Below the pieces are notes generated by a model that saw only the letters and a program-made list of their open reading frames with translations, was not told where the DNA came from and searched no databases. This document shows positions 11,834 through 26,449 of a stretch of 64,000 bases of DNA, one piece after another (position 1 is the first letter of the stretch; the number at the start of each line of letters is the position of its first letter). Position numbers and translations under genes: made by a program. Source of the DNA: Alphaproteobacteria bacterium (GTDB lineage Bacteria > Pseudomonadota > Alphaproteobacteria > GCA-2731375); contig CBDDPY010000002.1 in the NCBI GenBank assembly GCA_965232515.1, positions 1,344,001 to 1,408,000 on the forward strand. The letters are read 5' to 3'.

Positions 11834-11923
11834 TGGCGGATGGGGTGGGATTCGAACCCACGAGACGCGCTAACGTCTGCCGGTTTTCAAGACCGGTGCC
11901 TTAAACCGCTCGGCCACCCATCC
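11834..11923 (-). tRNA. tRNA-Ser(TGA), 90 nt, encoded CCA
   Basis: GGATGGGTGGCCGAGCGGTTTAAGGC-ACCGGT-CTTGAAA-ACCGG, long variable arm, GGTTCGAATCC, CCATCCGCCA. Confidence 0.97.
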
Positions 11924-11925
11924 GC
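11883..11925. repeat. att core copy 1 (5' half of the intact tRNA-Ser)
   Basis: GTTTTCAAGACCGGTGCCTTAAACCGCTCGGCCACCCATCCGC, identical to 26407-26449. Confidence 0.95.
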
Positions 11926-11954
11926 AATAATGATTTCAATCACTTAACAAAATT

Positions 11955-11987
11955 GTCGGGGCCGCGATACACCGCAAGAGCCCCGAC
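11955..11987 (-). terminator. Hairpin downstream of the integrase, possible terminator
   Basis: GTCGGGGC / GCCCCGAC arms, followed by AATTTTGTT on -. Confidence 0.45.
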
Positions 11988-12007
11988 TTGCAACCCAATT
12001 GCAACCC
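11988..12007 (+). repeat. Paired integrase arm-type sites
   Basis: TTGCAACCC-aa-TTGCAACCC; the same pair recurs at 26269-26289. Confidence 0.75.
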
Positions 12008-12017
12008 GACCGGCCGG

Positions 12018-13169
12018 TCAGCGTTCTACCATTGGTCTCAATATCGCGTCTATCCGGTTGGCCGCTTCTTCCTGCATTCCCGGCAGCACATGCGAATAGG
12101 TGTCGAGCGTGATCGAGACCGACGCATGGCCGGCGCGCTCACTCGCCACCTTCGGGTGCACGCCTTCAAGCAGCAGGTGCGAGATGTGCGTATGCCGGAG
12201 ATCGTGAAACCGGACGGTCGGGACATCGATGCCGGCGATGCGGCGGGCAAACTCGCGGGTGAGGGAGCGCGGCTGGACTGGCGCGCCGTCATAGCGGCAG
12301 ATAACCAACCCCTCGTCGTCGCGCCCCATGCCTTGGGCAAGCCGGAGCTCGGCCTGCTCGCGCCGATGGCGCCGCAGGGCATCGACCGCGACCGCAGGCA
12401 ATGAGATCGTCCGGCGCGAGCGTGCCGTCTTCGGCGGCTGGAACTGCACGCCCTTGGCTGTCTGCTCCAAGGTCTGGGTTACCGAGATGGACGCGCCGTC
12501 GAGATCGACATCGCGCCAGCGCAGACCAAGTATCTCGCCGCGGCGCATACCTGTGGTGACGGCCAGCAGGACCGGCATGTAAAGCTTGGTGCCGCCTATC
12601 GCGTCGAGCAGGACGCCAGTTTCCTTCGGGGTCAGGATCCGCATTTCCTTCCGCACCGGCCGCGGCGGCTCGACATCCTTGGCCGGGTTCCTGGCGATCA
12701 TCTGCCAGCGCACGGCCTGCTTTAGCGCCTGGCTGAGTATGCGGTGGTGGTGCTTCACCGACTGGGCGGAAAGACCTCCCTTGCCATCACGGCGGCCCGA
12801 TTCGAGCGCCTTTGACCATGCGGTGCTGATATGGACCGGCTGCAGCTTGCTGAGAACGTGCGTGCCCAGCGCCGGCACCAGATGATGGTGCACGATGTCG
12901 GCGTAGCGCTCGAACGTCTTCGGTCGAACGCTCGGCTTCACGGTGTCAAGCCACTGCTGCAGGAACTCGGCAACCGTGGTGCGGCTCGGCTCGACATACT
13001 CATTCGCATCCAGCGCGGCCAGCAGGCGGTTGAGTTCCCGCTGAGCATCGCGCTTGCCGCCGCGGACAGTGTGCCATTTGGTGCGGCGCTTCCCGGTCTC
13101 AGGGTCGCGCCCGATATCAATCTTTATCGCCCATGATTCCTTACCGCGCTTGCGGATATGACCTTTCAT
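12018..13169 (-). CDS. int: Tyrosine integrase with N-terminal arm-binding domain
   Basis: MKGHIRKRG, TGMRRGEILGLRW, FHDLRHTH, RAGHAS, DTYSH. Confidence 0.95.
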   Translation of the reverse strand: MKGHIRKRGKESWAIKIDIGRDPETGKRRTKWHTVRGGKRDAQRELNRLLAALDANEYVEPSRTTVAEFLQQWLDTVKPSVRPKTFERYADIVHHHLVPALGTHVLSKLQPVHISTAWSKALESGRRDGKGGLSAQSVKHHHRILSQALKQAVRWQMIARNPAKDVEPPRPVRKEMRILTPKETGVLLDAIGGTKLYMPVLLAVTTGMRRGEILGLRWRDVDLDGASISVTQTLEQTAKGVQFQPPKTARSRRTISLPAVAVDALRRHRREQAELRLAQGMGRDDEGLVICRYDGAPVQPRSLTREFARRIAGIDVPTVRFHDLRHTHISHLLLEGVHPKVASERAGHASVSITLDTYSHVLPGMQEEAANRIDAILRPMVER

Positions 13170-13717
13170 TTCAGCCTCCCGATCAGATCGCCCAGCCATT
13201 CCCGGATGCTGGGGAACATCTTCAACTGTTTTGAGTATTGAACGCCCTTCTCCGGAAGCGGCGTCTCATAGGTCATTTTCAACTGATCGATGATCCCGAG
13301 AGCGGTGGCCTCCGCCAATTGCTCGGGCTTAGGTGCCCAGCTTAGATGGGCCGGCGCCTTGGTCTTGCCCGCGGGTCGGAAGGCCAGCAACAGCTTTGCA
13401 ATCGCCTGGGCAGTGACCTCGGTGGTGTAAGCGTCGCTCGCCCAGTGCCGCCGCGTGATCATCTCGACCGAGTCAAAGACCTCGTTGAACAGCCGCGCAA
13501 ACGCATAGCGCTCGAGGCTATCGAACCGCTCCCGGATTTGCTTTTCATCGTCGAATGACCCGCGCAGCCGCGCCTCGACCTCCTGGCTAAGTGACATGTT
13601 GCTCGCCGCCCGGGCGTCCTCCAACGCCTGCCGCAAGTCGGCTGTAATGCGCGTGGTGAGCACGGCCCGCTTGTCCTCATAAGGCCCGCTTGGTTTGCGT
13701 CCGATCTTCCTTGGCAT
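13166..13717 (-). CDS. Ribbon-helix-helix (Arc/TraY-like) regulator, probable repressor
   Basis: VLTTRITADLRQALEDARAASNMSLSQEVEARL. Coupled to int and divergent from xis. Confidence 0.7.
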   Translation of the reverse strand: MPRKIGRKPSGPYEDKRAVLTTRITADLRQALEDARAASNMSLSQEVEARLRGSFDDEKQIRERFDSLERYAFARLFNEVFDSVEMITRRHWASDAYTTEVTAQAIAKLLLAFRPAGKTKAPAHLSWAPKPEQLAEATALGIIDQLKMTYETPLPEKGVQYSKQLKMFPSIREWLGDLIGRLK

Positions 13718-13898
13718 CGTCTCGTCCTGCTTAATTTGTCTTCACTATTTTTCACTCTGATGCGTTTTGATGTGGTGCGCAAGCACAAAAAGGGCTATAG
13801 CGGCTAGAGGCGAAACAAAACGAGACCGGCCGAGGCCACAGAGGGGGCCGTAGTCCTAGGGCTCGACCAACTGCGAAGCGCAAAGGAAAGGAAACATC

Positions 13899-14093
13899 AT
13901 GCTGGAAAACCCGAAGACCATCAGCGTCCCCGAGGCCGGCTGGCGCTATTTCGGTCTCAGCAAGAATGCGTCCTATGAGGCCGCCAGGCGCGGCGATCTT
14001 CCCGTCATCCGCATCGGTCGCATCCTGCGCGTCCCGGTGGCCGCGATGGACCGAATGCTTGAGCAGGCCGGCCAAAACGAACGCGCTGCCTGA
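13899..14093 (+). CDS. Excisionase/AlpA-like DNA-binding protein
   Basis: TISVPEAG...GLSKNASYEAARRGDLPVIRIGRILRVP. Confidence 0.85.
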   Translation: MLENPKTISVPEAGWRYFGLSKNASYEAARRGDLPVIRIGRILRVPVAAMDRMLEQAGQNERAA

Positions 14094-14302
14094 CGCGACG
14101 AGTAGAAAGAGGACCGAGCGCTAGCCGCGAGCCATGACCGCAAGGCTCACTATCGATGCTGAGCGAGAACGCCGGCTGTGCGACGGCGAAAGATCGCCAG
14201 ACCGCGCAGGCGGTACGACGGACATGGCAGCAGATGCGGCCATGAACACGTTTGAGAGGATCGGCGAGATTGTCGACCGAATCGTAAAGCGGATTTGGAT
14301 CG

Positions 14303-14866
14303 ATGATTGAACTCGACTTCGACCCCCGAGAGACCTTCTACGCCTGCGGGCGCGATGTCCGACAGAGCCACATTGATCGGATCTGCCGGCACGTCACACC
14401 GCGCGCATTGCTCGGCGGCGGCGGCTTCGGTGTTGCCCGCATCCAGTTCGACGGTGACAGGTTCGATTTCGACGCCGCCGGCTTCGAAGCGTTCATTCTG
14501 GCCGCAAGAGAGTCACGGTGGACCGATCAGCTCGGAACCATAACCCCCATTATCGATCTCGTTGCCTGGCTGCCCGACCGCCCGCAGGTGTTCGGCGTGC
14601 TGGAGGGCCGCGCCTGGGCACTCGGGGAGCCGGCTCTATCGCCGAACCGAATGACCGCAGTCCCGGTCGTGCGAACACCGCTCGCCTGGCTGCAGCACGG
14701 CGGCGACGCGCTGCTGATCCTCGATCGCAAGCGGGCTTGGCTAGAACTGATGCACGGGCCGGCCCTGATCGCCGAAGACGTGCAGCATGGCCGAGAGCTG
14801 CGAGAGATCGTCAACCCGCCGAAATGGACGGGCGAAATCATGTTGCGGGAGAGGGCGGCAGCATGA
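14303..14866 (+). CDS. Replication-associated hypothetical protein (primase position)
   Basis: IIDLVAW...RTPLAWL motif. ATGA-coupled to the helicase. Confidence 0.65.
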   Translation: MIELDFDPRETFYACGRDVRQSHIDRICRHVTPRALLGGGGFGVARIQFDGDRFDFDAAGFEAFILAARESRWTDQLGTITPIIDLVAWLPDRPQVFGVLEGRAWALGEPALSPNRMTAVPVVRTPLAWLQHGGDALLILDRKRAWLELMHGPALIAEDVQHGRELREIVNPPKWTGEIMLRERAAA

Positions 14867-16005
14867 GCGACGACGGGTTGATCCGACTGGAGGACGCCGA
14901 ACACCGCGCCCGCGGCGGCGATCCCACGCCGATCATCGACGAACTCGACCCTGTAAGGCTGCACGGCAAGCCGATCCCGCCGCGCCGCTGGTTGGTGCCC
15001 GGCCTGATCCCGTGGAAATCCGTCACGTTGCTCGGCGGCGATGGTGGGTTGGGAAAGTCGCTGCTAGCAATGCAGCTCCAGGCCGCGGCCGCGATCGGGC
15101 AAGACTGGATCGGGTTCGAAACCCAGCCGGTCAAGTCATACGGCATCTACTGCGAGGACGACGCCGACGAGCTGCACCGCCGGCTTGCCGACATTGCACG
15201 GCATCACGGCGTCGAGCTCGGCGACCTGGCCGACATGCTGATGGCGCCGAGGGTCGGACACAACAGTGTTTTGGCGTCGACCGGCTACGACCGCATCTTC
15301 CGCGAGCTGCCGCTATTCCAGGCTGTCAAAGCGAAGTGCCGCGAGCATGGCGCCCAATTACTCATCATCGACACCGTGGCCGACACGTTCGGCGGAAACG
15401 AGAACTTCCGCGGCGAGGTGCGCACCTTCATCAACCTGCTGCGGCAGATCGCAATCGAGATCGACGGCGCCGTTGTCTTAACCGCACATCCGTCGAAAGA
15501 CGGCCTGTCGACCGGCAGCGGTATTTCGGGGTCGACCGCCTGGAACAACAGCGTTCGGTCTCGCGTCTACCTGACCCGGCCCAACACCGACGACGGCGAG
15601 GAGGACCGATCGGACGAACGGGTGCTGAAGACGATGAAAGCCAATTACGGCGGCCTGCATGACGATATCCGGCTCGTCTGGCGGGATGGCGTTTTCGTCC
15701 GCATCGAGGAGCCGAGCGGCACCATTGGTGCCATCGAGCGACGGTCAGCGGAAGGTGCGTTTCTGGAGGGTCTGGACGCGCTGCAGCGCCAGGGCCGAGC
15801 GGTTAGCGAGTCCCGCAATGCCGGCAACTTCGCGCCGAAGGTAATCGCCGGCATGAAGGTCGGGAAGCGGCACGGCCGGGGCAAGTTGGCCAAGGCCATG
15901 GAGCGGCTTTTCGACGAAGGAAAGATCAAGGTCGAGACGTACGGACGCACCGGCGATCGGCACAAGCGCATCGTCATCGTCGGCGAGGAGGGGCACGAAA
16001 AATGA
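14863..16005 (+). CDS. RepA/AAA_25-family (RecA-like) replicative helicase
   Basis: Walker A GDGGLGKS, Walker B LLIIDT, AHPSK, SGSTAWNNSVRSR, KANYG. Confidence 0.9.
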   Translation: MSDDGLIRLEDAEHRARGGDPTPIIDELDPVRLHGKPIPPRRWLVPGLIPWKSVTLLGGDGGLGKSLLAMQLQAAAAIGQDWIGFETQPVKSYGIYCEDDADELHRRLADIARHHGVELGDLADMLMAPRVGHNSVLASTGYDRIFRELPLFQAVKAKCREHGAQLLIIDTVADTFGGNENFRGEVRTFINLLRQIAIEIDGAVVLTAHPSKDGLSTGSGISGSTAWNNSVRSRVYLTRPNTDDGEEDRSDERVLKTMKANYGGLHDDIRLVWRDGVFVRIEEPSGTIGAIERRSAEGAFLEGLDALQRQGRAVSESRNAGNFAPKVIAGMKVGKRHGRGKLAKAMERLFDEGKIKVETYGRTGDRHKRIVIVGEEGHEK

Positions 16006-16007
16006 GC

Positions 16008-16172
16008 TGCGTCGGTCCCGTTTCGCCACCTCGTAAGTCATTGATTTTATTCGCGTCGGTGTGTGTTCGACGATTTTGCGTAGGTGTCTGAGAAAATGAA
16101 AGAAAATCAATCACTTAACTCTTGCGTCGGTTCTGCGTCGGTGTGTGCCTACCCCCATAGGGGGGTAGGGCA
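16008..16172. promoter_or_regulatory. Putative replication origin of the element
   Basis: Five GCGT(C/A)GGT iterons, two inverted IHF-like sites, an AT-rich patch and a CCTACCCCC/GGGGGTAGG palindrome right after the helicase. Confidence 0.65.
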
Positions 16173-16243
16173 GGGCCCCCGCTCGTCGGGGGAGCCCACT
16201 GCCCCAGTTCCGTCACTCCCCTTGGAAACCCGGAGGAACCGAA

Positions 16244-16588
16244 ATGCTTGATGACATCACCTGCGCCGAGTTCGGCCAGCGCGTGGTCGACGAACTCGCG
16301 CGAACCTGCCCGCATCTGCAGCCTTTCCTCGTCGAGACCGCCCGGTTCGGCGCGGTATGCACATTCGCTCGCGAGAAGAAGTTGGGCGGCGACAAGCCGG
16401 CCTGGCAGATCCTCGAGTCGGCGCTTGCTGACATCTTTCACGTGGCGCGCCGGATAGGCACCGGCGGCGATGACATGACCTGGACCGTGGTTTCGGACAA
16501 GGCCGCGCTTCGCGAGGCGCTGACCGCCGTTTTGCAGCCCGAGCCGGCGCCCGAGCCCGAAGAACCGAACATCCTTATGGCCGGTTAG
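16244..16588 (+). CDS. Hypothetical protein
   Basis: GGAGG RBS; first gene of a co-oriented cluster. Confidence 0.7.
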   Translation: MLDDITCAEFGQRVVDELARTCPHLQPFLVETARFGAVCTFAREKKLGGDKPAWQILESALADIFHVARRIGTGGDDMTWTVVSDKAALREALTAVLQPEPAPEPEEPNILMAG

Positions 16589-16631
16589 GACGGCGAAACC
16601 GGCGTCTGTCTGCACAGTGGAGACCGCGCAA

Positions 16632-16868
16632 GTGAGCGAAAAGACAAAGGAAACCGGGAAACGCCCCCCTCGTGTCGGCCGTCTTGACACCGTTGGCGGC
16701 GTCGTCGCGGAGCTGGGCAAGATCTATCGAGCGGCCCGCCGCGGCGATATCGACACCCAGGATGTGACCCGGCTCGCCTATGTGCTGTCGCAAATCCGCG
16801 CGGCCATCGAAAGCAGCGAAATCGAGCGCCGGCTTGACGAGCTTGAACGCAAGGCAGGAACGCTATGA
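16632..16868 (+). CDS. Small helical protein, possible small-terminase-like oligomerisation domain
   Basis: RLDTVGGVVAELGKIYRAARRGDIDTQDVTRLAYVL...IERRLDELE. GGAGA RBS. Confidence 0.6.
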   Translation: MSEKTKETGKRPPRVGRLDTVGGVVAELGKIYRAARRGDIDTQDVTRLAYVLSQIRAAIESSEIERRLDELERKAGTL

Positions 16869-17179
16869 GCAAGCGCCTCCGCGCCCGGTTGGAACGCCTC
16901 GAAACCGCGAAGGCAGATGCCGAGGCGTTCTGCAACACCATCGTCGTTCTGCCCGGAGAGACGCACGACCAGGCGCTCGGTCGCCTCGGCTTCGAGCCTG
17001 GCCCAGTCGACATGACCATGTTCGTGCAGCGGTTCGCCGAAGACGCGCAGCCAGAACCGGTAAAGCGGACACCGCTCGTCGGCAGACCAGCCGGGCCGCT
17101 CCGGGTTGTTATGGCCGACGACTGGAGCCGGGAAGACTGGGACCTGACGGAATACGCCGACTGCGAGGGGCGGTCATGA
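16865..17179 (+). CDS. Hypothetical protein (RLxRL...PGET, copy 1)
   Basis: ATGA coupling on both sides. Confidence 0.7.
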   Translation: MSKRLRARLERLETAKADAEAFCNTIVVLPGETHDQALGRLGFEPGPVDMTMFVQRFAEDAQPEPVKRTPLVGRPAGPLRVVMADDWSREDWDLTEYADCEGRS

Positions 17180-17364
17180 GGCGGAGCATCACACATCGCC
17201 TCGACCGCGTGGCCCGCCGCGTCGACCCGTCGCCGGGGATTGTATTTGTCATTATCAAGCCCGGAGAGACGCGGGAATCCGTCATGGCCGAAAGGGGCCT
17301 GACCGGGCGCAAGTTCCGAGCCCTCTACATCATCGACCTGACGAAAGGGGAACACGATGAATGA
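17176..17364 (+). CDS. Hypothetical protein (RLxRL...PGET, copy 2)
   Basis: 62 aa MRRSITHRLDRV...IIKPGETRE, ATGA coupled. Confidence 0.65.
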   Translation: MRRSITHRLDRVARRVDPSPGIVFVIIKPGETRESVMAERGLTGRKFRALYIIDLTKGEHDE

Positions 17365-18013
17365 ACCTGTAAACGAGGCCGAACCGTCGGCAGCCGAGAA
17401 GGTGGCCGCGACGCTCGCCGGCCTCGAAACGCAACTCGCCGACGCGACGGCCGAGCGTTCCGAGCTGATCGACCGACAGGGCCGATTGGCGATGCGCATG
17501 CACAGCGGCGACAGCGCAGCCGGCGAAGCCTATCGCGGCGTGGTGGGCGAGCGGCGCCGGCTTGATGAGACGGTCGAAAGCCTGACGCTCGCTGTGCAGG
17601 CGGCCCGCGCCGAGCATGAGCAGGCTGTCAGCGACGATATGGCGGCCGCCGAGGCAAACCGGGCCGAGCGTATCGACGCCCTACTCGACCTGCGCAATGC
17701 GGCGCTTGCCGACGCCGAGCGAGCCTTGCGCGAGGCGCTCGACCGGCTGGACCGAGCCGGCGAGCTGGCGGCCGAGATCGTCGAGGTTCGCGGCGCTGTC
17801 AAGAACCTGCCCCGTTTCAGCAACACGCTGCACCCCGAAAACACACGCGACCGGCTGTCGTGTTCGGCCAACGCGTTCGGGCTCGGGCGGTGGCTCAATC
17901 TCGATCAGGAGCGGATGCCGTTCATCAGGGACGACACGCCATCGTCGCTGGTCGACGTCGAGGCACCCGTACAGGACCGATATCGACTGACCGAGAAGGA
18001 GCACGCGGCATGA
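17357..18013 (+). CDS. Coiled-coil hypothetical protein
   Basis: Long Ala/Glu/Leu/Arg heptad pattern; coupled in operon. Confidence 0.75.
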   Translation: MNEPVNEAEPSAAEKVAATLAGLETQLADATAERSELIDRQGRLAMRMHSGDSAAGEAYRGVVGERRRLDETVESLTLAVQAARAEHEQAVSDDMAAAEANRAERIDALLDLRNAALADAERALREALDRLDRAGELAAEIVEVRGAVKNLPRFSNTLHPENTRDRLSCSANAFGLGRWLNLDQERMPFIRDDTPSSLVDVEAPVQDRYRLTEKEHAA

Positions 18014-18363
18014 ACGCGCAAGAGGCACAACGGAAGATCCGCGCCATCCTGGCCGACAAGGATCACGCCTATCACGATTCTCGTAGTCCACAGCATCAAG
18101 ACGCTGTGGACGTGATGCAGGGGCTTTACGAGATCGTCTATCCGGTCAGCGAGCCCGAGCCCGGCGGGCAGCGGTTCGCCGAGCTGGCGCAATCCCAGAT
18201 CCGGAAGAAGGAAAGCGATCCCGACTTCATGGCGGCGTACCGCGAACCCGGCCACGCCGATCACGCGCAGGCGGTCGAGACCATGAACCGGCTTTACCGC
18301 GAGGCGCACCCGGAGCCCTCGATCGAGGAAGGGTTCGCAGACGCAGGAGGGCCCGAGCAATGA
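18010..18363 (+). CDS. Protein of two tandem repeats resembling a podovirus scaffold C-terminal motif
   Basis: AQRKIRAILADKDHAYHDSRSPQHQDAVDVMQGLY and AQSQIRKKESDPDFMAAYREPGHADHAQAVETMNRLY. Confidence 0.7.
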   Translation: MNAQEAQRKIRAILADKDHAYHDSRSPQHQDAVDVMQGLYEIVYPVSEPEPGGQRFAELAQSQIRKKESDPDFMAAYREPGHADHAQAVETMNRLYREAHPEPSIEEGFADAGGPEQ

Positions 18364-18803
18364 CCATGAGCGGCGTTGCAACCGGCGGCCTGGGCAGCAT
18401 CGGAGACCAGCAGCACAAGCCCGATGACTTCCAGGCACTCTTGGAGACGTACGGCACCGCCTCGGCGGCCGGCGACTACAAGCACTTCAGCGAAGCGGTT
18501 GGGGACAGGCTGGTTGAAGCCGGCGTGCTGGACGAAAATAGCCCTTGGCTGACGACGTTCGTCTTGCAGGCGCAGGCGGCGGCAAAGCTCCGGGAAGTCG
18601 TCGACGGACGCGGCGAAGTGGTGCGGGATTTCGGCGGGCTCGCCATGTTCCTAAGTGATCGCGCGATGATCGGTGGCGACGAAGGGCGTCGGCTACTGCT
18701 CGAGTACGCAGACTTCCGCCAGGCGTTCGCAAAGGCATGCCGGGACGAGCTGGAAGCCCGAAGCGGACAACCAGGCTACGAAGCACCGGACGACGCCGCA
18801 TGA
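18360..18803 (+). CDS. Hypothetical protein
   Basis: ATGA coupled on both sides, GGAGG RBS. Confidence 0.7.
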   Translation: MTMSGVATGGLGSIGDQQHKPDDFQALLETYGTASAAGDYKHFSEAVGDRLVEAGVLDENSPWLTTFVLQAQAAAKLREVVDGRGEVVRDFGGLAMFLSDRAMIGGDEGRRLLLEYADFRQAFAKACRDELEARSGQPGYEAPDDAA

Positions 18804-19312
18804 CCACTGCGCCCGCTACAGTCGATTATCGCGCGCGCTCGCGGCGGCCCGTCATCCGGGAAGCGACGGCCGCCGACGTGCCCGAGCTGGTGCGCCTGGG
18901 CGCCGAGATGCACGCGGAGTCGCCGGCCTATTCCTGGCTGCCGTTCGACGACGTGCTGGCGCTCGCGAACGGGCATCGCTGGGTGATGAGCGACGAACAC
19001 TTGGTGCTGACGGCCGACGATGACGGCGACCTGTTCGGCGTGCTGGTCGGGCACCTCGGACGGTTCTTCTTCTCGCGCCGGCTGATCGCCTCCGACATCG
19101 TGCTCTATGTCCGCGCCGAACGCCGCGGCGGCCTGGCGGCGAGCCGGATGGTCAAGCGCTTCCGGGACTGGGCGACAGAGCGCGGCGCCGCCGAGATGTG
19201 TATCGGGGTAAGCGCCGGCATCGATAGCGAGCGTATCGGCCGCTGGCTGGAAGCGATGGGAATGGACATCGGCGCGGTCACGTACAAGAGGCGGCTCGAT
19301 GTCACTCCATGA
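18800..19312 (+). CDS. Phage-type GNAT acetyltransferase
   Basis: IREATAADVPELVRLGAEMHAES, LYVRAERRGG, WATERGA. Confidence 0.8.
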   Translation: MTTAPATVDYRARSRRPVIREATAADVPELVRLGAEMHAESPAYSWLPFDDVLALANGHRWVMSDEHLVLTADDDGDLFGVLVGHLGRFFFSRRLIASDIVLYVRAERRGGLAASRMVKRFRDWATERGAAEMCIGVSAGIDSERIGRWLEAMGMDIGAVTYKRRLDVTP

Positions 19313-20018
19313 ACTCGGACCACCGTTCGGCGATGATGGCGCGTGCGATCGGGATTGCGGTGGCGCGGTCCATGCCCGGCCGCAGTCGGTCGTCGTAGAG
19401 CGTGGCGAGGAGCAGCCTGTCAGCCGGGGTGAGCTCGAAAACCGTATCGGCTTCGCAGATGACGGACGGACGGTAGTGGCAGGCGTCGGCCGGCAGGCCC
19501 ATCGCCTGATAGATCTCCTCAAGGATGCAGTCGCGCTGGTCTCGTTCCGAGATGTCGGCGCCGATCAGCACAAGCGCGCCGATCACCTCGCCGTTGCCGC
19601 GTTGCGTGGCGATGTGCACCAGGCAAAGCGATGCGTTGATTTCATCGCCGGCACTTACCCATGTTGGCTGCACCTGACGAAATTGCCGGCGCGGCATAAC
19701 GGCGATTTGGAAATTGACCTGATCGTCGCGGACGGCGCTCCGGTTCCAGCCGAGACCGGTTGCTACGGCGATGTCATCCATGCTGGCTTTGAGGAAGGCG
19801 TCATGCAGGGCAAGGCTCGTTCGAGCGGCCTCACTGTCGACCCATCCAACGACTGGTTCGTTGGGCCAGCGCCGCATGGTGTCTTGGCCAACGCCGAAAT
19901 CATTACCGAAAGCGGCCACTTCGAATTGCCGGGCCACGTTCTCGGGTGTCGGCGTAATCGGCTCCGGGCCAGTCGACACGCAACCGGCGAGCAAGAGAGC
20001 GGCGAGCAGCACACGCAT
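19302..20018 (-). CDS. DUF2927-like lipoprotein
   Basis: Lipobox LLLAGC; CILEEIYQAMGLPAD; LTPADRLLLATLYDDRLRPGM. Confidence 0.8.
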   Translation of the reverse strand: MRVLLAALLLAGCVSTGPEPITPTPENVARQFEVAAFGNDFGVGQDTMRRWPNEPVVGWVDSEAARTSLALHDAFLKASMDDIAVATGLGWNRSAVRDDQVNFQIAVMPRRQFRQVQPTWVSAGDEINASLCLVHIATQRGNGEVIGALVLIGADISERDQRDCILEEIYQAMGLPADACHYRPSVICEADTVFELTPADRLLLATLYDDRLRPGMDRATAIPIARAIIAERWSEFME

Positions 20019-20056
20019 GCCGCAACCATATAGGCGCGAACAAAGGAGACGCAATC

Positions 20057-20890
20057 ATGTGTGGTACAGGCGGTGAAGGCGACAACGGCGGCGATGCCGA
20101 AGTTGACATTGAAGCGCAGGCATTCGGCGTTGGCCCGGTCGGGCAGACGGGGCCGGCACCGGGACCAGGGAATGAGCCGGGCGGGCCGTCGGACAATCCG
20201 GGTCCGGGTCAGTTTGGCGGCATCGGCGCGCCGGGCACGTCCGGGAATTTCGGCGGTGTCGGCGGTCCTGCCGATCTTGAAGCCGATCAAGCCGGGCGGA
20301 ACCCTGGCGCGCTGTCGCCGGGTAAGGGACCAGGGCCGAGCAGCAACACAGTGGGCAAGGTCATCAAAAATGTCTTGCCGTTCGGTGTGCCGCCGGCCGC
20401 TCTCGATCCGTTGGCCGAGAAGGGCGGCCGCGCAATAACAGGCCTTATCGAGGGCATAACCGGAGCGAAGGGCCAAGCCCCCGGCCAAGGCCCCAGCACA
20501 GGCAGCGAAGGCGGTCCCGCGAGCGATTTCGGCGAGAGCGGTAACTTCGGCGGTGTTGGCTTTGGTGGCGGAAACACTGGCGGCGACGGTGCGGTTGATA
20601 ATGGCGCTTCCCGACCGCTGGCAACGTCCGTGCAGACAGCCGAGCGTCAAATCGCGAACCAGCTCGGGCGGCCGGCGCCGCCGGCACGCGCCCCTGCGCT
20701 TGACCTGCCGAGCTCGAACATTGACGAGATCCGTGCCGAGCTGGAAGCAGAGAAAGACGCCCGCCGACGCCGGCGGCGCGCGACACGCGATTCAACGATC
20801 GTGACCGGTCCGCTCGGCGTGCCTGGGCAACCGGAGCTGCTGTTCACTCGCGCGATCCCCGGCGCGTCGCGTCGCCTTTTGGGGCAGTGA
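20057..20890 (+). CDS. Gly/Pro-rich protein with podovirus pre-portal virion-protein-like termini
   Basis: AAGGAG RBS, N-terminal MCG, C-terminal RRRRRATRDSTIVTGPLG...RRLLGQ. Confidence 0.7.
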   Translation: MCGTGGEGDNGGDAEVDIEAQAFGVGPVGQTGPAPGPGNEPGGPSDNPGPGQFGGIGAPGTSGNFGGVGGPADLEADQAGRNPGALSPGKGPGPSSNTVGKVIKNVLPFGVPPAALDPLAEKGGRAITGLIEGITGAKGQAPGQGPSTGSEGGPASDFGESGNFGGVGFGGGNTGGDGAVDNGASRPLATSVQTAERQIANQLGRPAPPARAPALDLPSSNIDEIRAELEAEKDARRRRRRATRDSTIVTGPLGVPGQPELLFTRAIPGASRRLLGQ

Positions 20891-21198
20891 CGATGGCCGA
20901 CGACGACAAGGTGGTCGAACTCAGCGACTCGCGCGGCGATCAGATCCAGGCCGATCAGCAATTCCTGCTCGACGAGCTACGCAAGTCTGCAGCAGCGGCG
21001 GCGGACATCCCCGATCTGGCCGGCTTCGCCCTGATCGCCTGGGACGGCGAGGCGAAGCCCTACACGCTGGTGAACCTCGGCGCGACCGTTAATCCGACCG
21101 TGCCGCGGCAGCTAATCCCGGCCTATGTGCAGATCGTCATGCAGCAGTGGCACGCGCTGTGCTGCGAGCAGGAGCGGTTAGATGGCAGTGAACTGTAA
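20887..21198 (+). CDS. Hypothetical protein
   Basis: GTGA overlap with the previous gene; DLAGFALIAWD. Confidence 0.65.
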   Translation: MTMADDDKVVELSDSRGDQIQADQQFLLDELRKSAAAAADIPDLAGFALIAWDGEAKPYTLVNLGATVNPTVPRQLIPAYVQIVMQQWHALCCEQERLDGSEL

Positions 21199-21247
21199 TT
21201 GACGCCGCTACAAACTTCCTAGTCGGTCATCGACGTCCAGTTGAGCT

Positions 21248-21592
21248 TCATTCAATACGCCAAGAATGGTCTGGATCAGGCACAAAAGTCACTCCAGATC
21301 CACTACCAACTCCGATTCCCCCCGTTTCATCCGGAATCAAGGATCCCTCATGTTTGGAATAACGGATCATCACCAGCCAACCGTTTGGCACTGAAACCCT
21401 CCAAAGCTCGTAGCACGTCGGTTGAGGTCGAATCTCGCTACCACAATCTCTCTCAATAACCTCCCATAATAGGCGGTACTGACCTGCAGACTGACCTGCA
21501 GCCGGCGCAGATATCAGCAGCAAACTCGCTGAGATAGCTGCGATGGCAATGGGAATCCCTAAAACTAGCGAGGCACGCATCGGATTGCTCAC
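21248..21592 (-). CDS. Small secreted hypothetical protein
   Basis: Signal peptide; RVSVPNGWLV...GVTFVPDPDHSW; GTGA-coupled to the Cys-rich ORF; low GC. Confidence 0.65.
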   Translation of the reverse strand: MSNPMRASLVLGIPIAIAAISASLLLISAPAAGQSAGQYRLLWEVIERDCGSEIRPQPTCYELWRVSVPNGWLVMIRYSKHEGSLIPDETGGIGVGSGSGVTFVPDPDHSWRIE

Positions 21593-21909
21593 TCACATCC
21601 GTCAAAGGGATCGCAAAAACAGCCGATCGGGCAATCCCCAGAGTGCTGACAGTACTGACCAACGCAACTCGTTGCCACAAGCTCATCAAATGACCGCAGC
21701 TCGTCCGGGCACCACGTAGCACGAATACAATTTGCCGAGCGCGCATGGGCCTCAGCAAACGAAAGTCCCTGTACATGGATTTTCTTTCGTGCGAGCGGTC
21801 CAGATTCTGGGTCTGCCACAAGGTATATCCCCGTGCCACTCATCTCGTTTTTGTTCTGGTTCGGCTGAACATACTTTGCAACTTCAGGATGAAGTTCGAA
21901 GGTCGGCAT
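21589..21909 (-). CDS. Hypothetical protein with Cys-rich C-terminus
   Basis: GGGAGG RBS; ends CVGQYCQHSGDCPIGCFCDPFDGCE. Confidence 0.7.
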   Translation of the reverse strand: MPTFELHPEVAKYVQPNQNKNEMSGTGIYLVADPESGPLARKKIHVQGLSFAEAHARSANCIRATWCPDELRSFDELVATSCVGQYCQHSGDCPIGCFCDPFDGCE

Positions 21910-22336
21910 AGCTACCTCCCGGCCAAATTGTCGAACACCATTTGATACTAGCAACCTTAGATTTTATAACAAACACCTGTAGCTATGAAACGGCAATTTG
22001 CCGGTAGACAGGTTTCCCCAATGCGCGAGCCTGCATCGGCGTCACCATGAACCCGTCGTGCTAGAGCACCTAATTTCGACCTACGTAAGGGACGTCATGC
22101 AGACATGGCACGGGCCGGCGTGCGGCCAGGAGCGGCTCGACGCCGGCAAGTCAGGGGGGAGAGAAGTAGCCCAGGCAGTCCCTTGCCGCTGTGGCGCGAA
22201 ACCTCGGCCAGAGAGGGGTGCTCTGTGGGGCATCCTTGGGCATGGAGAAAGAAAACAGGGAGGGCACCCACCTTGTTTTCGAAACTGCCGTCGATAATGA
22301 ACAGTGACGACCACAGAGCTTGCCAAGTGGGCGATG

Positions 22337-22546
22337 TTAGAGGCGCATGAACTGAACGAACGCCTGAATGGCGAACCCCGATACTACCAGCAGGAATCCA
22401 TAGAATTGGCGGTCGAACCGCTGTCCGCCACCGCTCCAGAACGGCCGGCGGTCCGGCGCCCTCAGTAGATGGTAGCCGAGAACTGCAAAGCCCACGCCGT
22501 CGCAGAGCAGCCCGACGAGATTGATGAACCCCAAACTCACAATCAT
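22337..22546 (-). CDS. Small two-TM membrane protein
   Basis: Two hydrophobic helices; AGGGGG RBS. Confidence 0.55.
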   Translation of the reverse strand: MIVSLGFINLVGLLCDGVGFAVLGYHLLRAPDRRPFWSGGGQRFDRQFYGFLLVVSGFAIQAFVQFMRL

Positions 22547-22577
22547 TGTCGCCCCCTTCTGACGTTGGCGGAGATTG

Positions 22578-23105
22578 TTATGTCGATGGACTGTCTTCAG
22601 ATGTCACGCCTTCCACATCTGACATTTCGATCGGCGGTATTCGCAGGTACAGCGGCCGCCCAAACGTGTGGTAGATCACGCCATAGACACGCTCGGTATG
22701 GGACCATTCAATCAAGTCTTGTGTCTGCTGGCACTGCGACATGAATTTCTCGCCAACCTTAAGAACGTAAGGGAGTGGATAGACGTCGCCTGGATGCATC
22801 ACGACGGCTGCCTTAGTCGATTTGTTGAGAAGCCAACTCCACCAACCGTCATAACCGAGCAGACCGATGGTGGTTATGGTCGTTGGGGTGGAGCCCGTGT
22901 TGGCAACGTCAAAGATCACGTATTTAGTGTCTCTTTCGAAGCCTCGGCCCCCGGCGAAAATCATGTTCGGCCGTGCCCATCCCTGTAACCGCGGTCCCCT
23001 CGACCACCATTTGATGGCATCCCAAACCAACACGAACGTCGCAACAATCGCCGCATAGATCGCGACAGGGTCGATTTCGTCGGCCAGATCAAACGTAAGC
23101 TCCAT
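22578..23105 (-). CDS. Membrane-anchored hypothetical protein
   Basis: N-terminal TM (VAIYAAIVATFVLVWD) then a beta-rich domain (FDVANTGSTPTTI). Confidence 0.7.
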   Translation of the reverse strand: MELTFDLADEIDPVAIYAAIVATFVLVWDAIKWWSRGPRLQGWARPNMIFAGGRGFERDTKYVIFDVANTGSTPTTITTIGLLGYDGWWSWLLNKSTKAAVVMHPGDVYPLPYVLKVGEKFMSQCQQTQDLIEWSHTERVYGVIYHTFGRPLYLRIPPIEMSDVEGVTSEDSPST

Positions 23106-23173
23106 GCTGGCACCCGCCTTTTCGATTTACGTTCGGCGCAATCTACAACCGATAATACAACCTAGCGGGCATA

Positions 23174-23198
23174 GAAAAGGCCCCGCCGAAGCGGGGCC
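23174..23198 (-). terminator. Intrinsic terminator of the Cre-like recombinase operon
   Basis: GGCCCCGC-TTCG-GCGGGGCC-TTTTCT on -. Confidence 0.85.
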
Positions 23199-23240
23199 AG
23201 TAGAGTCTTGGTGCGGCGAGGAAAGCGCCGCGGGGCCAGC

Positions 23241-24203
23241 TTACACGCGGTTCTGCGCTGTCGCCAGCTTGGCCGCCGCACCGCGGCGAACCATCAGGTT
23301 CTCGGTGTAGCGCGACACCATCAGCGCCGTTTTCCAGCCGCCGGCCTGCATGATGCCCGGCAGCTCGATGCCAGCCGCGACCATGTCCTGAGCGCAGCCG
23401 ACGCGCGTTGAATGCCCGGAGATGTCCGAGACCAGCGAATCGGCAACGCCGGCAGTGGCGGCCATGCGCTTGTAGATCCGGGCCACGTCGCCGCCCCGGA
23501 GACGGCTGCAGACGGCGCCGCCGAGCCGGACGGACCGGAACAACGCGCCATGCGCGATGTCGGCCGCCCGCAGCCACGCCGAGAGGTGCGCCACAGTGTC
23601 AGCCGCCAGGTACCGCATGGAGCCTTCGCCGCTCTGGTCGGTTTTGCTGCGCCGAATGAGCGCCGTTCCGTCGCCGGCCTCGGTCACATCGATGTCGGCC
23701 ACGTCCAGCGCCACGAGCTCGCTGCGCCGCGCCAGCGTGTCATAGGCGACGGACAGCAGCGCACGGTTGCGAAGGCCGATCGGCGTGTCGGGACAGGCCG
23801 CGAGCATGCGGTCGACCAGCGGGCGTGTCAGCCCGGCCGCCTGCCGCTGCCGCCGGCCTTTCTCGCGGTGCATGCGCTTCATGGCGAGCTTGACGGACAG
23901 GTCATCGGTTGGCGTCGGCACGCCTGCCGCACGGTGGAACATGGCGATGCTCGACACGTACCGCTGCACCGTCGCCGGCGCCCGGGCCTCGGACATCGCG
24001 TCGATGAACGCCACCACGGCCGCAGGGGTCGCGGGGAGGGGCGTGAACCCCTCCCGTACGCACCAGGCCGTCCAGATGGCCGTATCGCTCTTGAGCGCCC
24101 GCTCCGTCGCTTCGGCATAGGCGCCGCGGGCCTGCTCGGCGTGCCGCTCGAGATTGGCCAGCACATCGGCCGGCAGCGGCGTGACGGTGGTGAGCGCGTT
24201 CAT
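23241..24203 (-). CDS. Cre-like tyrosine recombinase
   Basis: YAEATERALKSD..W..WC, RNRALLSVAYDTLARRSEL, RSKTDQ, SGHSTRVG, GGWK, VSRY. Confidence 0.9.
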   Translation of the reverse strand: MNALTTVTPLPADVLANLERHAEQARGAYAEATERALKSDTAIWTAWCVREGFTPLPATPAAVVAFIDAMSEARAPATVQRYVSSIAMFHRAAGVPTPTDDLSVKLAMKRMHREKGRRQRQAAGLTRPLVDRMLAACPDTPIGLRNRALLSVAYDTLARRSELVALDVADIDVTEAGDGTALIRRSKTDQSGEGSMRYLAADTVAHLSAWLRAADIAHGALFRSVRLGGAVCSRLRGGDVARIYKRMAATAGVADSLVSDISGHSTRVGCAQDMVAAGIELPGIMQAGGWKTALMVSRYTENLMVRRGAAAKLATAQNRV

Positions 24204-24517
24204 GACGAGCCTCCAACACTCAGGCCGACACTCCACAAAAGGGGCAACGCCCTTGTCTCGGGTCCAGGCTGCCGGCCCTCGTCAACAGCGATGCGCCAGT
24301 ACCGCGCGTCGAAGTCGAACGGCGGCCGCAGCGGATCGGCGTTGAGCCGCCACGCCAACAATGACGCCTCCTCCTCAAGCCAAGCCCAGTATTTGCGCAA
24401 GGCCTCCTCGGACGGGCGTTCGATGGCGGCGACGATTTGCGGCTTGATGATGGCCGCCGTCGATGCGATGGCGCCCATACCTTTGACGACAGTGCGACGG
24501 GAAACGTTCGTTTTCAT
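24200..24517 (-). CDS. Hypothetical protein with twin-arginine-like N-terminus
   Basis: MKTNVSRRTVVKGMGA; GGGAGG RBS; ATGA-coupled to the recombinase. Confidence 0.65.
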   Translation of the reverse strand: MKTNVSRRTVVKGMGAIASTAAIIKPQIVAAIERPSEEALRKYWAWLEEEASLLAWRLNADPLRPPFDFDARYWRIAVDEGRQPGPETRALPLLWSVGLSVGGSS

Positions 24518-24528
24518 GGCCGCCTCCC

Positions 24529-25167
24529 TCACACCCAAGCCTTGCCGCAGGCCAGATACTCGACCGTCTGATTGCTGGCGATTTGCGCCCGGCACCCTTC
24601 CGCCGACTGTTGGGTAAACTCGTTGTCGGCAAGATCGTTTTCCCGGTCGTGGTTGTCTTCGGCCGGGTCGTCGTCTTCCAGCGGGTCGTCATCCTCGTTG
24701 TCGTGGTCAGGCTCCATGTCGGCGGCTTCGCTGCCGAACTCGGCCAGCCAGGCCAGCAACGGCGGCGTGACGGGAACGAGCAGGTAATCCAGATCGCCGT
24801 CGACGGGGATAAGGTCAGCGTCGGCGACCAGCGCGGCAACGACCAGCGTCGCCTTGTGCGCCATCTGCCGCCGCAAGATCGCCGCTTCACCGGTCATAGC
24901 GATGGCGATGTTGGTGGCGGCTGTCCGCCGGCCAGTCGGGGCGCACCGGTGGTACTTCAGCAGTCGCGCCAGCTTCAGCAGCACATGCCGTGTGAAGTCG
25001 AGCCCGATGTCGTCGTGCACGTCGAGCAGATCGGCCGGCACGTCCGGCAGAAGGTGCGGCAGGTGTTCTGCCCGGTCATAGGACCTGGCCGATTCGCGGA
25101 CGAAGTGCTTGCGCGACGCAATGCCGATCGCGCGGGCTTGCGCGGCAGCCATTTCGATGGGTGTCAT
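24529..25167 (-). CDS. Hypothetical protein with acidic tail
   Basis: First ORF after the c4-like leader; DMEPDHDNEDDDPLEDDDPAED. Confidence 0.65.
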   Translation of the reverse strand: MTPIEMAAAQARAIGIASRKHFVRESARSYDRAEHLPHLLPDVPADLLDVHDDIGLDFTRHVLLKLARLLKYHRCAPTGRRTAATNIAIAMTGEAAILRRQMAHKATLVVAALVADADLIPVDGDLDYLLVPVTPPLLAWLAEFGSEAADMEPDHDNEDDDPLEDDDPAEDNHDRENDLADNEFTQQSAEGCRAQIASNQTVEYLACGKAWV

Positions 25168-25218
25168 GATGATTTCCTACGTTTGGCTTTCTAGGCCATG
25201 CCAGCGGTCAGCGCTGGC

Positions 25219-25294
25219 GCCGGGAGCTAGAAACCGGACGTAGGACCGGCGGGCTTATTCCCCCGAAGGGTCTTGTATTCACCGCACTCCCGAC
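25219..25294 (-). ncRNA. c4/CI-like antisense RNA
   Basis: Closing stem CGGGAG/CTCCCG. Carries CCTACG and GTTTCTAGC, complementary to targets at 25340-25360 and 25176-25194. GGGCTTATTCCCC motif. Confidence 0.7.
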
Positions 25295-25370
25295 AGAAGC
25301 CGGGCATAAATATACCGCCAAGACCGGTGGCGGGAACCGCCTACGTTAGGTGTTTCTAGCACCGTCGATA

Positions 25371-25399
25371 ATGATAGATATGGGGCACCTAGTTTGCAA
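25371..25399 (-). promoter_or_regulatory. Sigma70-type promoter of the c4-recombinase operon
   Basis: TTGCAA-N17-TATCAT on -. Confidence 0.7.
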
Positions 25400-25473
25400 C
25401 CCTCGGCTAGTACGCAATTGATCGGAAGATTGGATCGCGGCGAGACGCAACGCTCAAACCTCAGCAATCGGCC

Positions 25474-26226
25474 ATGATGACAGTCAACAACTTCTCAGAA
25501 CTGATCGACGGAATTTCGACGATCATCGATGCGCGGCCAAGTGAGACGTGGTGGTGGCGGGGTCACGCCAGGAAGGACTGGAGCTTGCGCCCGAGCGTTC
25601 ATCGAGGCGACCTCGGGCATCGGTATGAGCAGAACTCGTTGGCGACCTTTGTTCGGTACAGCTCTGCACGGCATGCGAACTGCCCTGCGCGCAATGACCT
25701 GCCATCGTGGGCATTCCTGATGCAGCACTACGGGGTGCCCACGCGCCTGTTGGACTGGTCGGAGTCCCCACTCATTGCCGTTTATTTTGCTGTCGCCAAC
25801 CAGGCACACGAAGCTGAGGCAGGGGTGTTGTCTGGGCTACTTCCCGGCCCCATGAACCATCATGAAGCCGGCCTAGCCGGAGTGATTGGCATTAACGGGG
25901 AACCAGCTCGTTCATTGTTCTTGGCCATGAGCGATGAACGAATTCATGAAAAGCACCAAGAAATCATCGCGATACAAGCAAACCAAATGGACCCGCGGAT
26001 GCTGGCGCAGCTTTCGCACTTCACGATCCATGGCCGCGCCACACCTATTGAGCAGATCGATGTCGCGGGTCAGGTCCTCTTCCAAATAGAGATAGCGCCG
26101 CAAGCCAAGGCCGGCATTCGTGAGAGGCTGAGGCAGTTCGGAGTGAGGGAAATGAATCTATTTCCGGATCTCGAACACCTCGCTAACGAGATTCGTGAAT
26201 TGCGGTGGAAAGCGCCCGAAAGCTGA
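25474..26226 (+). CDS. FRG domain protein
   Basis: WWRGH..LRPSVHR, MQHYGVPTRLLDWSESPLIAVYFA, RMLAQ, LFPDLE. Confidence 0.9.
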   Translation: MMTVNNFSELIDGISTIIDARPSETWWWRGHARKDWSLRPSVHRGDLGHRYEQNSLATFVRYSSARHANCPARNDLPSWAFLMQHYGVPTRLLDWSESPLIAVYFAVANQAHEAEAGVLSGLLPGPMNHHEAGLAGVIGINGEPARSLFLAMSDERIHEKHQEIIAIQANQMDPRMLAQLSHFTIHGRATPIEQIDVAGQVLFQIEIAPQAKAGIRERLRQFGVREMNLFPDLEHLANEIRELRWKAPES

Positions 26227-26268
26227 ACGTCCAACTCGGCGCGAACCGTTGCCAAAGAACAGCGCCAT

Positions 26269-26289
26269 CTGCAACCCACATTGCAACCC
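26269..26289 (+). repeat. Paired integrase arm-type sites
   Basis: CTGCAACCC-aca-TTGCAACCC. Confidence 0.7.
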
Positions 26290-26406
26290 AACTGCGAAGG
26301 AATTGCCGGGATGACCGGGGACGAAGCGAAACACCGGACGCCACGAAAGGCCCGGATTTCCTAACTCTCAGGGAAGTGAAGGGACAGCGCGGTACGGTTG
26401 TAATCA

Positions 26407-26449
26407 GTTTTCAAGACCGGTGCCTTAAACCGCTCGGCCACCCATCCGC
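26407..26449 (-). pseudogene. att core copy 2: displaced 5' half of tRNA-Ser
   Basis: Identical 43-mer that ends at the anticodon loop. Confidence 0.92.

Follow-up and report, generated by a model that had tools for sequence, protein, structure and literature searches.

A small gene built of two scaffold-tail repeats

The DNA analysed here, referred to as the window, is a stretch of 64,000 nucleotides from an alphaproteobacterial genome (contig CBDDPY010000002.1, positions 1,344,001 to 1,408,000). At 18010..18363 of its forward strand lies gene P0001, whose open reading frame (ORF), uninterrupted by any stop, gives a protein of 117 amino acids (aa) made up solely of two tandem motifs resembling the tails of phage capsid scaffolding proteins. 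As delimited with hidden Markov models (HMMs), repeat 1 (residues 1-49, the HMM envelope; 18010..18156, +) is of an 'H-type' (..DKDHAYHD..), and repeat 2 (residues 51-105; 18160..18324, +) is of an 'F-type' (..DPDFMAAY..) with an insertion of two residues relative to repeat 1 (DPDFMAAY vs DKDHAY). A Shine-Dalgarno sequence, AAGGAG, was read 8 nt 5' of the ATG (17996..18001, +). ATGA overlaps are present on both sides of P0001, joining its start to the stop of a 218-codon ORF and its stop to the start of a 147-codon ORF, and its G+C content at the three codon positions (GC1 0.74, GC2 0.41, GC3 0.77) fits the pattern of a coding frame.

An initial annotation, made from the sequence alone, had described a protein of 117 aa with two repeats of ~40 aa fitting one consensus, and this description was borne out. 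The two halves of P0001, aligned against each other by BLASTP in a single comparison, were 35% identical (18/52, E 2e-5). As a control for circularity, an HMM was built from 10 scaffold C-termini, with both P0001 repeats excluded, and searched against the 120,753 six-frame ORFs of at least 30 aa from the 7.39-Mb genome. The sole match at E <= 10 was the P0001 ORF itself (E 6.2e-28), with independent E-values (i-E) of 6.9e-16 for repeat 1 and 4e-10 for repeat 2. Both repeats are diverged copies of a helical-hairpin motif of ~45 aa, for which no Pfam family was found in P0001 at E <= 0.01. The closest relatives of repeat 1 were scaffold tails of prophages from the same bacterial family (43-46% identity to the tails in genomes G024 and G019). 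Combined, these results confirm the two-repeat architecture of P0001.

Relationship of the motif to podovirus scaffolding proteins

The only PHROG family matched by P0001 was phrog_3742, at profile positions 244-285 of 287, whereas full-length members match positions 20-287. Proteins of this family, of ~260-340 aa, typically contain an N-terminal and central body domain of ~230 aa, which is missing from P0001, followed by the C-terminal tail motif of ~45 aa, which P0001 contains twice. They are encoded between the portal and major capsid genes; P0001 is instead flanked by a coiled-coil ORF and an orphan ORF.

A single-copy match to the motif was found in 4 of 32 other genomes of the bacterial family (G008, G009, G019 and G024). 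It forms the extreme C-terminus of proteins of 259, 276 and 321 aa, and the G024 copy ends at a contig end. The three proteins from G008, G009 and G019 all matched phrog_3742 end to end in a PHROG scan (E 6e-35 to 8e-40). In G008 and G009, the scaffold gene has a PF12236 portal gene on one side and a PF19821 major capsid gene on the other, followed in G009 by tail tube A/B and internal virion protein genes in the order of T7-like podoviruses. The partial G024 copy lies directly upstream of a gene whose product aligns with capsid proteins (57% identity to those of G008 and G009), and the G019 copy has a portal gene before it and no capsid gene after it. The latter locus (L012, G019:C12, 1076-5680, minus) carries a portal gene, a small Bbp19-like ORF, the phrog_3742 scaffold and then a gene for a 448-aa Gly/Ala-rich protein that is not a capsid protein; a weak copy of the motif was observed at the N-terminus of this protein (12.8 bits, E 0.003 in a small search).

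The same association was seen in phages. In Alteromonas phage ZP6, the motif terminates gp07, which is encoded between the genes for the portal and the major head protein, and in Vibrio phage VP5 it is the end of gp06, encoded immediately upstream of the major head gene. A metagenomic podovirus contig, L025, has the order TerL, small protein, GNAT, portal, two small ORFs, scaffold and major capsid protein, and the same scaffold arrangement was found at two loci of metagenome-assembled genomes (MAGs). When the G008 scaffold was used as a query, 31 phage records were matched, 22 of them Pelagibacter phages, and many of the matched proteins are annotated 'capsid assembly protein'; apart from one 9.9-kb and one 27-kb record, these records are of 34-44 kb. 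Wherever context was seen, the single-copy scaffold gene adjoined portal and/or major capsid genes. By sequence homology, we identify the motif as the last ~50 residues of the phrog_3742 'capsid assembly' proteins of T7-like podoviruses, including HTVC010P-type pelagiphages, ZP6, VP5 and alphaproteobacterial prophages. The initial annotation had assigned the motif to the ends of scaffolds in both BPP-1-like and marine podoviruses. The marine part of this assignment held for the pelagiphage, ZP6 and VP5 scaffolds; for the BPP-1-like part, the one link was a Bbp19-like ORF (PF25181) between portal and scaffold at a single locus.

Distribution and architectures of the motif

With a profile of a single repeat, 2618 of 1.84 billion representative proteins were matched at E <= 1e-3 and 360 at E <= 1e-10. 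The best 150 of the 2618 matches were sorted by architecture, a ranking that favours proteins with several copies because their scores add. In 62 of the 150, a long protein (200-350 aa) with a scaffold body ended in one C-terminal copy, and 15 were long, with several copies and a partial scaffold body. Another 43 were long, with 2-5 copies and no body, and 11 were under 200 aa, with two copies and no body, these repeat-only forms amounting to 54 of the best 150. The remaining 19 were short proteins with one copy (8 with a piece of the body, 11 without). A profile built from one repeat had been put forward as a check of the scaffold assignment, and it came out in its favour: the 62 proteins above are scaffolds with a C-terminal copy, and their visible contexts adjoin portal and/or major capsid genes.

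In a less biased survey, 400 genomes sampled from the class were searched with this profile, and 25 of them contained a match. Among the 28 loci inspected, 20 had a capsid and/or portal gene adjoining, 2 had the scaffold only and 6 had neither. None of the 28 carried two copies of the motif in one ORF, so that tandem arrangements are uncommon among genomes chosen as species representatives. Two of the nine class-level matches to P0001 itself (L019 and L020) proved to be false.

Two further occurrences were noted. L073 (G359:C16, 3-1211, minus) encodes a protein of 403 aa in which Ntox44, LysM and Phage_Mu_F domains were recognised, and a segment weakly similar to the motif (i-E 4e-5) lies between the last two of these. 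At L044, a podovirus locus in a MAG, a second ORF with a partial match to the scaffold body (E 1e-14) lies downstream of tail tube B (13053-13637, +). No Pfam family and no solved structure were found for the motif.

Predicted structure and a model of coat binding

The AlphaFold2 model of P0001, computed from a 25-row alignment, had a mean predicted local distance difference test score (pLDDT) of 87.7. Each repeat was modelled as a helix-turn-helix hairpin (pLDDT 96-98), and residues ~44-55 formed a low-confidence region containing a Pro/Glu linker of ~9 residues between the hairpins. Foldseek comparison of the model with the PDB gave no match at E <= 0.001, and a sequence search of the PDB with the motif gave nothing better than E 1.4. 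Since the motif has no sequence relative in the PDB, recall of a solved complex by the predictor is less likely.

A complex was then predicted for repeat 1 (12-row alignment) and the capsid protein encoded in G024, a genome of the same genus (289 aa, 10-row alignment). The complex scored 0.64 (individual runs 0.64, 0.66 and 0.54) against 0.00 for the best of three controls. Of 157 solved complexes, 116 reached the mark used for reading this score, as did 2 of 215 mismatched pairs; these counts apply only roughly here, since alignments made for this analysis were used. The runs agreed in at least 89% of contacts, with partner pLDDT of at least 84. The predicted contacts on the capsid protein were residues 10-27, which form a conserved N-terminal helix, and residues 99-102; those on the motif were residues 14, 17, 21-24, 29, 33, 36-38, 40-41 and 43-46, including the conserved Y21, H29, V33, M36, Y40 and P45. 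Repeat 2 keeps the residues at the conserved contact positions (Y, H, V, M, LY, P), and several other contact positions differ. As modelled, repeat 1 would contact the N-arm helix of the major capsid protein. A modelled complex with a capsid protein had been suggested as a check of the initial annotation, and the prediction for the same-genus prophage protein, when set against the controls, points the same way.

P0001 lies in an island integrated at a tRNA-Ser gene

The gene sits outside any phage, in an island integrated at tRNA-Ser(tga) (11834..11923, -). The 5' half of this tRNA gene forms a 43-nt direct repeat, attL (11883..11925), and an identical 43-nt copy, attR (26407..26449), lies 14,524 nt from it. 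A unitig of public run X1 spans exactly 11896-26442, at the same depth as the flanks. Two RNA runs, X4 and X8, gave no placed read of any kind, an outcome that does not bear on expression. A loose end resembling an empty att site was rejected as such; it had no match to the right flank of the window and is most simply another tRNA-Ser locus.

On the left, the island encodes a tyrosine integrase (12018..13199, -), 53% identical to that of a second island, L042, described below, an HTH_17 protein of Xis/AlpA-like type (13899..14093, +), 69% identical to an L042 ORF, and an AAA_25 replicase or helicase-like protein matching primase-helicase PHROGs (14866..16005, +). Five ORFs of 58-187 codons, which matched no family, separate the replicase from the coupled 218-117-147 genes, and these are followed by GNAT, DUF2927 (other strand) and Gly-rich genes and a 103-codon ORF. 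A second tyrosine integrase is encoded at 23241-24236, and a degenerate att-like copy is found at 25319-25340. Just inside attR, an FRG-domain protein (25474-26226, +; PF08867, E 6e-23) matches the PADLOC candidate PDC-S15 (E 5e-41); no PADLOC model was matched by P0001 or its neighbours. An 83-aa ORF among the neighbours fell in unnamed Atlas clusters only, with a weak DUF5681 lead at 0.78.

The window at 21200-24300 is a stretch of lower G+C content (0.60) with minus-strand ORFs, one having a signal-peptide-like start and one being Cys-rich, followed by the second integrase. The C-terminal ~27 residues of the 103-aa ORF, which ends at 21198, recur in diverged form in the ORF at 21998-22297. 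An insertion or recombination scar is thus suggested, and the 14.5-kb island may be composite.

The island has several satellite-type traits: it is flanked by att sites, is 14,524 nt long and encodes its own replicase beside an integrase and a regulator. It lacks capsid, tail and lysis modules, the GNAT gene and the phrog_831-like Gly-rich gene being its only homologues of virion-module genes. The satellite context implied by the initial annotation was thereby recovered, with an integrase, Xis and a replicase and no capsid genes. Elsewhere in the genome, which is 96% complete, no second copy of the motif and no phrog_3742 scaffold were found. PF19821 capsid and PF12236 portal proteins had no match anywhere in the genome, nor did tblastn queries with podovirus portal, capsid, TerL, tail tube and internal proteins.

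Related islands and orthologues

An alignment of four long repeat-only proteins was used to find related loci, and it retrieved two full-length ones in MAGs, L041 and L042. The latter, from another alphaproteobacterium, comprises 13,863 nt between two perfect 37-nt copies of sequence from the 5' half of a tRNA-Thr gene. Besides the tRNA and a four-repeat protein, it encodes an integrase, an Arc-like regulator, a Toprim primase, a phrog_21086 primase/helicase, two products without assignment and internal virion proteins of two families (phrog_418 and phrog_6651), and no portal or capsid gene was found in it. Layout and size are common to L042 and the island of the window, as are the integrase and Xis noted above. 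In L041, a multi-repeat protein is accompanied by a P4-type integrase, a DUF5906 primase and a tRNA-Val gene. Both repeat-only proteins with visible context (2/2) therefore lie in islands with an integrase and a primase and without shell genes. The islands measure 13.9-14.5 kb, against 34-44 kb for phages with this scaffold.

Four metagenomic orthologues of P0001, of 114 aa each and 43-52% identical to it, keep the order of H-type then F-type, both repeats and the contact residues. Other searches returned little: a word-index search with P0001 found only itself; a scan of genome contigs with an alignment of P0001 and P0010 gave 108 pattern matches, none of which was confirmed; and a metagenome scan gave one locus, the ordinary podovirus scaffold of L025. 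Scans of viral contigs gave no locus for P0010 or for the multi-repeat alignment A5, and seven for P0013, none of which (0/7) had the motif by HMM. Among the 32 family genomes, the 218-aa ORF had a weak match in one and AAA_25 had distant matches (25-30% identity) in three; no sibling island was recognised in these genomes, the surroundings of the three AAA_25 matches not having been looked at. A search at the level of the order covered the same 33 genomes.

Genes around P0001

The gene coupled upstream (17357..18013, +), whose stop overlaps the start of P0001 in ATGA, encodes a 218-aa coiled-coil protein modelled by AlphaFold2 with helices at 12-49 and 53-149 and a disordered tail. No family was found for it in Pfam or PHROG. 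The nearest named Atlas cluster, P4 Psu (0.89, low recognition), was not supported: Pfam returned no Psu at E <= 10, and Foldseek gave only generic coiled-coil hairpins. In L041 and L042, mutually homologous coiled-coil genes (E 1e-10) lie directly upstream of the repeat gene; no homology was detected between their products and the 218-aa protein (hhalign probability 2%, BLASTP E 0.2-2). The gene coupled downstream (18360..18803, +), whose start overlaps the stop of P0001, encodes a 147-aa orphan that retrieved only itself in a word search of 5.8 billion proteins.

Next come a GNAT acetyltransferase (phrog_1249; 18737..19312, +), homologous to the portal-side GNAT of related podoviruses, a DUF2927 protein (19302..20054, -), 43% identical to one beside the GNAT gene of the G008 prophage, and a Gly-rich protein of 277 aa with a phrog_831-like C-terminus (20057..20890, +). 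The last resembles, in position and C-terminal pattern only, a gene that immediately precedes the portal gene of the G008 prophage and one located in L025 between TerL and GNAT. In the G008 prophage, counterparts of all three genes stand next to the portal gene, and GNAT has further counterparts in L025 and L043. Of a podovirus head module, the island thus carries three or four components, and none of the shell.

Some details of this block were noted in passing. The GNAT (phrog_1249) and portal genes are immediate neighbours in L025 and L043 and are separated by a Gly-rich gene in L014. The protein between TerL and GNAT in L025 is small, basic-tailed and Gly/Ala-rich. DUF2927 adjoins motif-bearing genes or the GNAT/portal block in three genomes (G000, G008 and G159), at 19302-20054 of the window, at 5079-5894 of L014 and at L070, and two further copies are found elsewhere in G000 (C2, ~2.06 Mb and ~4.24 Mb).

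A proposed role in capsid assembly, and its alternatives

The reading that we somewhat favour is that P0001 is a CpmB-like, covalently bivalent scaffold mimic encoded by a satellite-like element. The protein would consist of two scaffold-tail hairpins joined by a short tether; it lacks the body, through which a true scaffold oligomerises and recruits the portal and core. When a T7-like podovirus with this motif at the end of its scaffold infects the cell or is induced, each hairpin would take the scaffold's site on the N-arm helix of one major capsid protein subunit. P0001 would out-compete the scaffold of the phage and bridge two neighbouring coat subunits, resulting either in smaller capsids fitting the ~14-kb element, as with CpmB of SaPI1, or in aborted assembly of helper capsids. 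Competition, bivalent bridging, size redirection and mobilisation as a satellite are the steps that we infer here. From general capsid geometry, the sizes of the islands (13.9-14.5 kb) and of the phages (34-44 kb) would stand in the ratio expected for a shift from T=7 to T=4. A bivalent mimic of the coat-binding tail had been proposed in the initial annotation, and the profile searches and the complex model, the latter for repeat 1, are consistent with it. The excerpted text of PMC12749128 reports that the scaffold C-termini of 80alpha and P22 contact the N-arm helix, and that of PMC5644958 that CpmB has the C-terminal motif of the 80alpha scaffold in common and competes for the same coat site.

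Several observations weigh against this reading. No excision product or circle joint was found in the assembly contigs of X1 and X3, where the island is at flank-level depth, and no helper phage was found resident in the genome. The island showed no recognisable small terminase gene and no such pac or cos site, and Pfam and PHROG scans gave no TerS family. Judged from its second integrase and the degenerate att-like copy, the 14.5-kb island may be composite. The four 114-aa orthologues are known here from protein sequences alone. The complex model pairs repeat 1 only with a stand-in capsid protein from another genome, and the tail would be the coat-binding part of this scaffold family by extension from other phages and by that model. 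Finally, GNAT, DUF2927 and the Gly-rich gene are common to the island and to podovirus prophages, and descent from a decayed prophage is therefore possible.

An alternative that we regard as unlikely is that P0001 is an assembly poison, a defence protein that binds the coat of incoming podoviruses and blocks their assembly, the island being a defence island or cryptic element that is never packaged. Homology and binding model are the same for this explanation as for a satellite protein, no TerS or pac site was recognised, the FRG-domain protein matches the PADLOC candidate PDC-S15, and a protein without the scaffold body may only cap binding sites. Against it, P0001 and its neighbours match no PADLOC model, the two homologous islands both measure ~14 kb, about one third of the size of a likely helper and in keeping with packaging, and the internal virion proteins of L042 (phrog_418 and phrog_6651) make sense only if that element uses virions.

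Less probable still is a role as a tag or adaptor, in which the motif would be a portable address for the capsid interior, or would bind portal, core or scaffold, and P0001 would titrate or bridge that partner. The variety of architectures would suit such a role, the best 150 matches including 43 long repeat-only proteins and 15 with extra copies on partial scaffold bodies, as would the weak copies in the 448-aa Gly/Ala-rich protein of L012 and in the MuF-domain protein of L073. The latter two matches are, however, weak (E 0.003 to 4e-5, in small search spaces), and the complex model places the conserved face of the motif on the capsid N-arm, all three controls scoring 0.00. The idea of a functionless relic, a duplicated scaffold-gene fragment in a decaying prophage, draws on the GNAT, DUF2927 and Gly-rich genes shared with podovirus prophages and on the rearrangement seen at 21.2-24.3 kb (low-GC stretch, second integrase, duplicated gene end), and it is very improbable given an intact frame with a strong Shine-Dalgarno sequence and stop/start coupling on both sides, four orthologues (43-52% identity) that keep length, both repeats and contact residues, a location outside the scaffold position, and a replicase without counterpart in the scaffold-bearing genomes G008, G009, G019 and G024.

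If P0001 is indeed a CpmB-like mimic, it would be a second, independent case, after CpmB, of a satellite copying the coat-binding tail of its helper's scaffold, here with the copy reduced to the tail alone and made bivalent through tandem duplication, and it would point to satellites of T7-like podoviruses in Alphaproteobacteria. The motif would then represent a compact coat-binding module for this group of phages, a prediction open to test. To our knowledge, few mechanisms of capsid redirection have been described (CpmB, Sid, TcaP and Ccm). A wider and rather doubtful extension, offered tentatively, is that an unrecognised class of satellite weapons exists, consisting of proteins made solely of 2-5 tandem coat-binding scaffold tails and encoded on ~14-kb tRNA-integrated islands that parasitise T7-like podoviruses related to the abundant HTVC010P-type pelagiphages; valency and linker length would set the size of the hijacked capsid, and P0001 would be the minimal member.

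Comparison with known systems

Searches of the open-access full-text literature returned the known systems CpmB, Sid, TcaP, Ccm, marine virion-encapsidated integrative mobile elements (VEIMEs) and Streptomyces satellites; neither proteins of tandem scaffold tails nor alphaproteobacterial satellites of T7-like podoviruses appeared among the results. For marine satellites, the excerpted text of the VEIME paper (PMC9618062) states that capsid remodelling seems uncommon.

The island resembles phage-inducible chromosomal islands and P4-like satellites in having an integrase, an Xis/AlpA-like regulator and a primase/helicase-type replicase, a size in the range of 10-15 kb, tRNA/att flanks and no capsid genes, and differs from them in that no TerS, Ccm, Sid or Psu was recognised on it. 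Sid of P4 and TcaP of the phage-inducible chromosomal island-like elements (PLE) are, in the excerpted accounts, satellite proteins that resize helper capsids, the role proposed here for P0001; unlike P0001, they are described there as external scaffolds unrelated to the internal scaffold of the helper.

P0001 shares the C-terminal motif of ~45 aa with the phrog_3742 'capsid assembly' proteins; unlike them, it lacks the ~230-aa body, contains the tail twice and is not encoded between portal and capsid genes. The scaffolds P22 gp8 and 80alpha gp46 place a C-terminal helical element on the coat N-arm helix, according to the excerpted part of PMC12749128, as P0001 is predicted to do by the model; no sequence or Foldseek similarity to P0001 is detectable in them.

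The closest parallel is CpmB of SaPI1, which the excerpted text of PMC5644958 presents as a small all-helical protein from an integrative element without capsid genes, as P0001 appears to be. The coat-binding part of CpmB, like the putative one of P0001, is homologous to a scaffold C-terminal tail, and both proteins would be bivalent; CpmB is described there as binding the N-arm site, which repeat 1 of P0001 would contact according to the model. The two proteins are not known to be related in sequence. The scaffold homologues of P0001 lie in prophages of related genomes, whereas that of CpmB lies in its helper, and the presumed helper of P0001 is a T7-like podovirus of Alphaproteobacteria and not a Staphylococcus siphovirus. 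Redirection of capsid size has been demonstrated for CpmB and is proposed for P0001 from sequence and model. By contrast to CpmB, which, in that text, dimerises through an N-terminal domain that P0001 lacks, P0001 would be bivalent by virtue of its tandem duplication.

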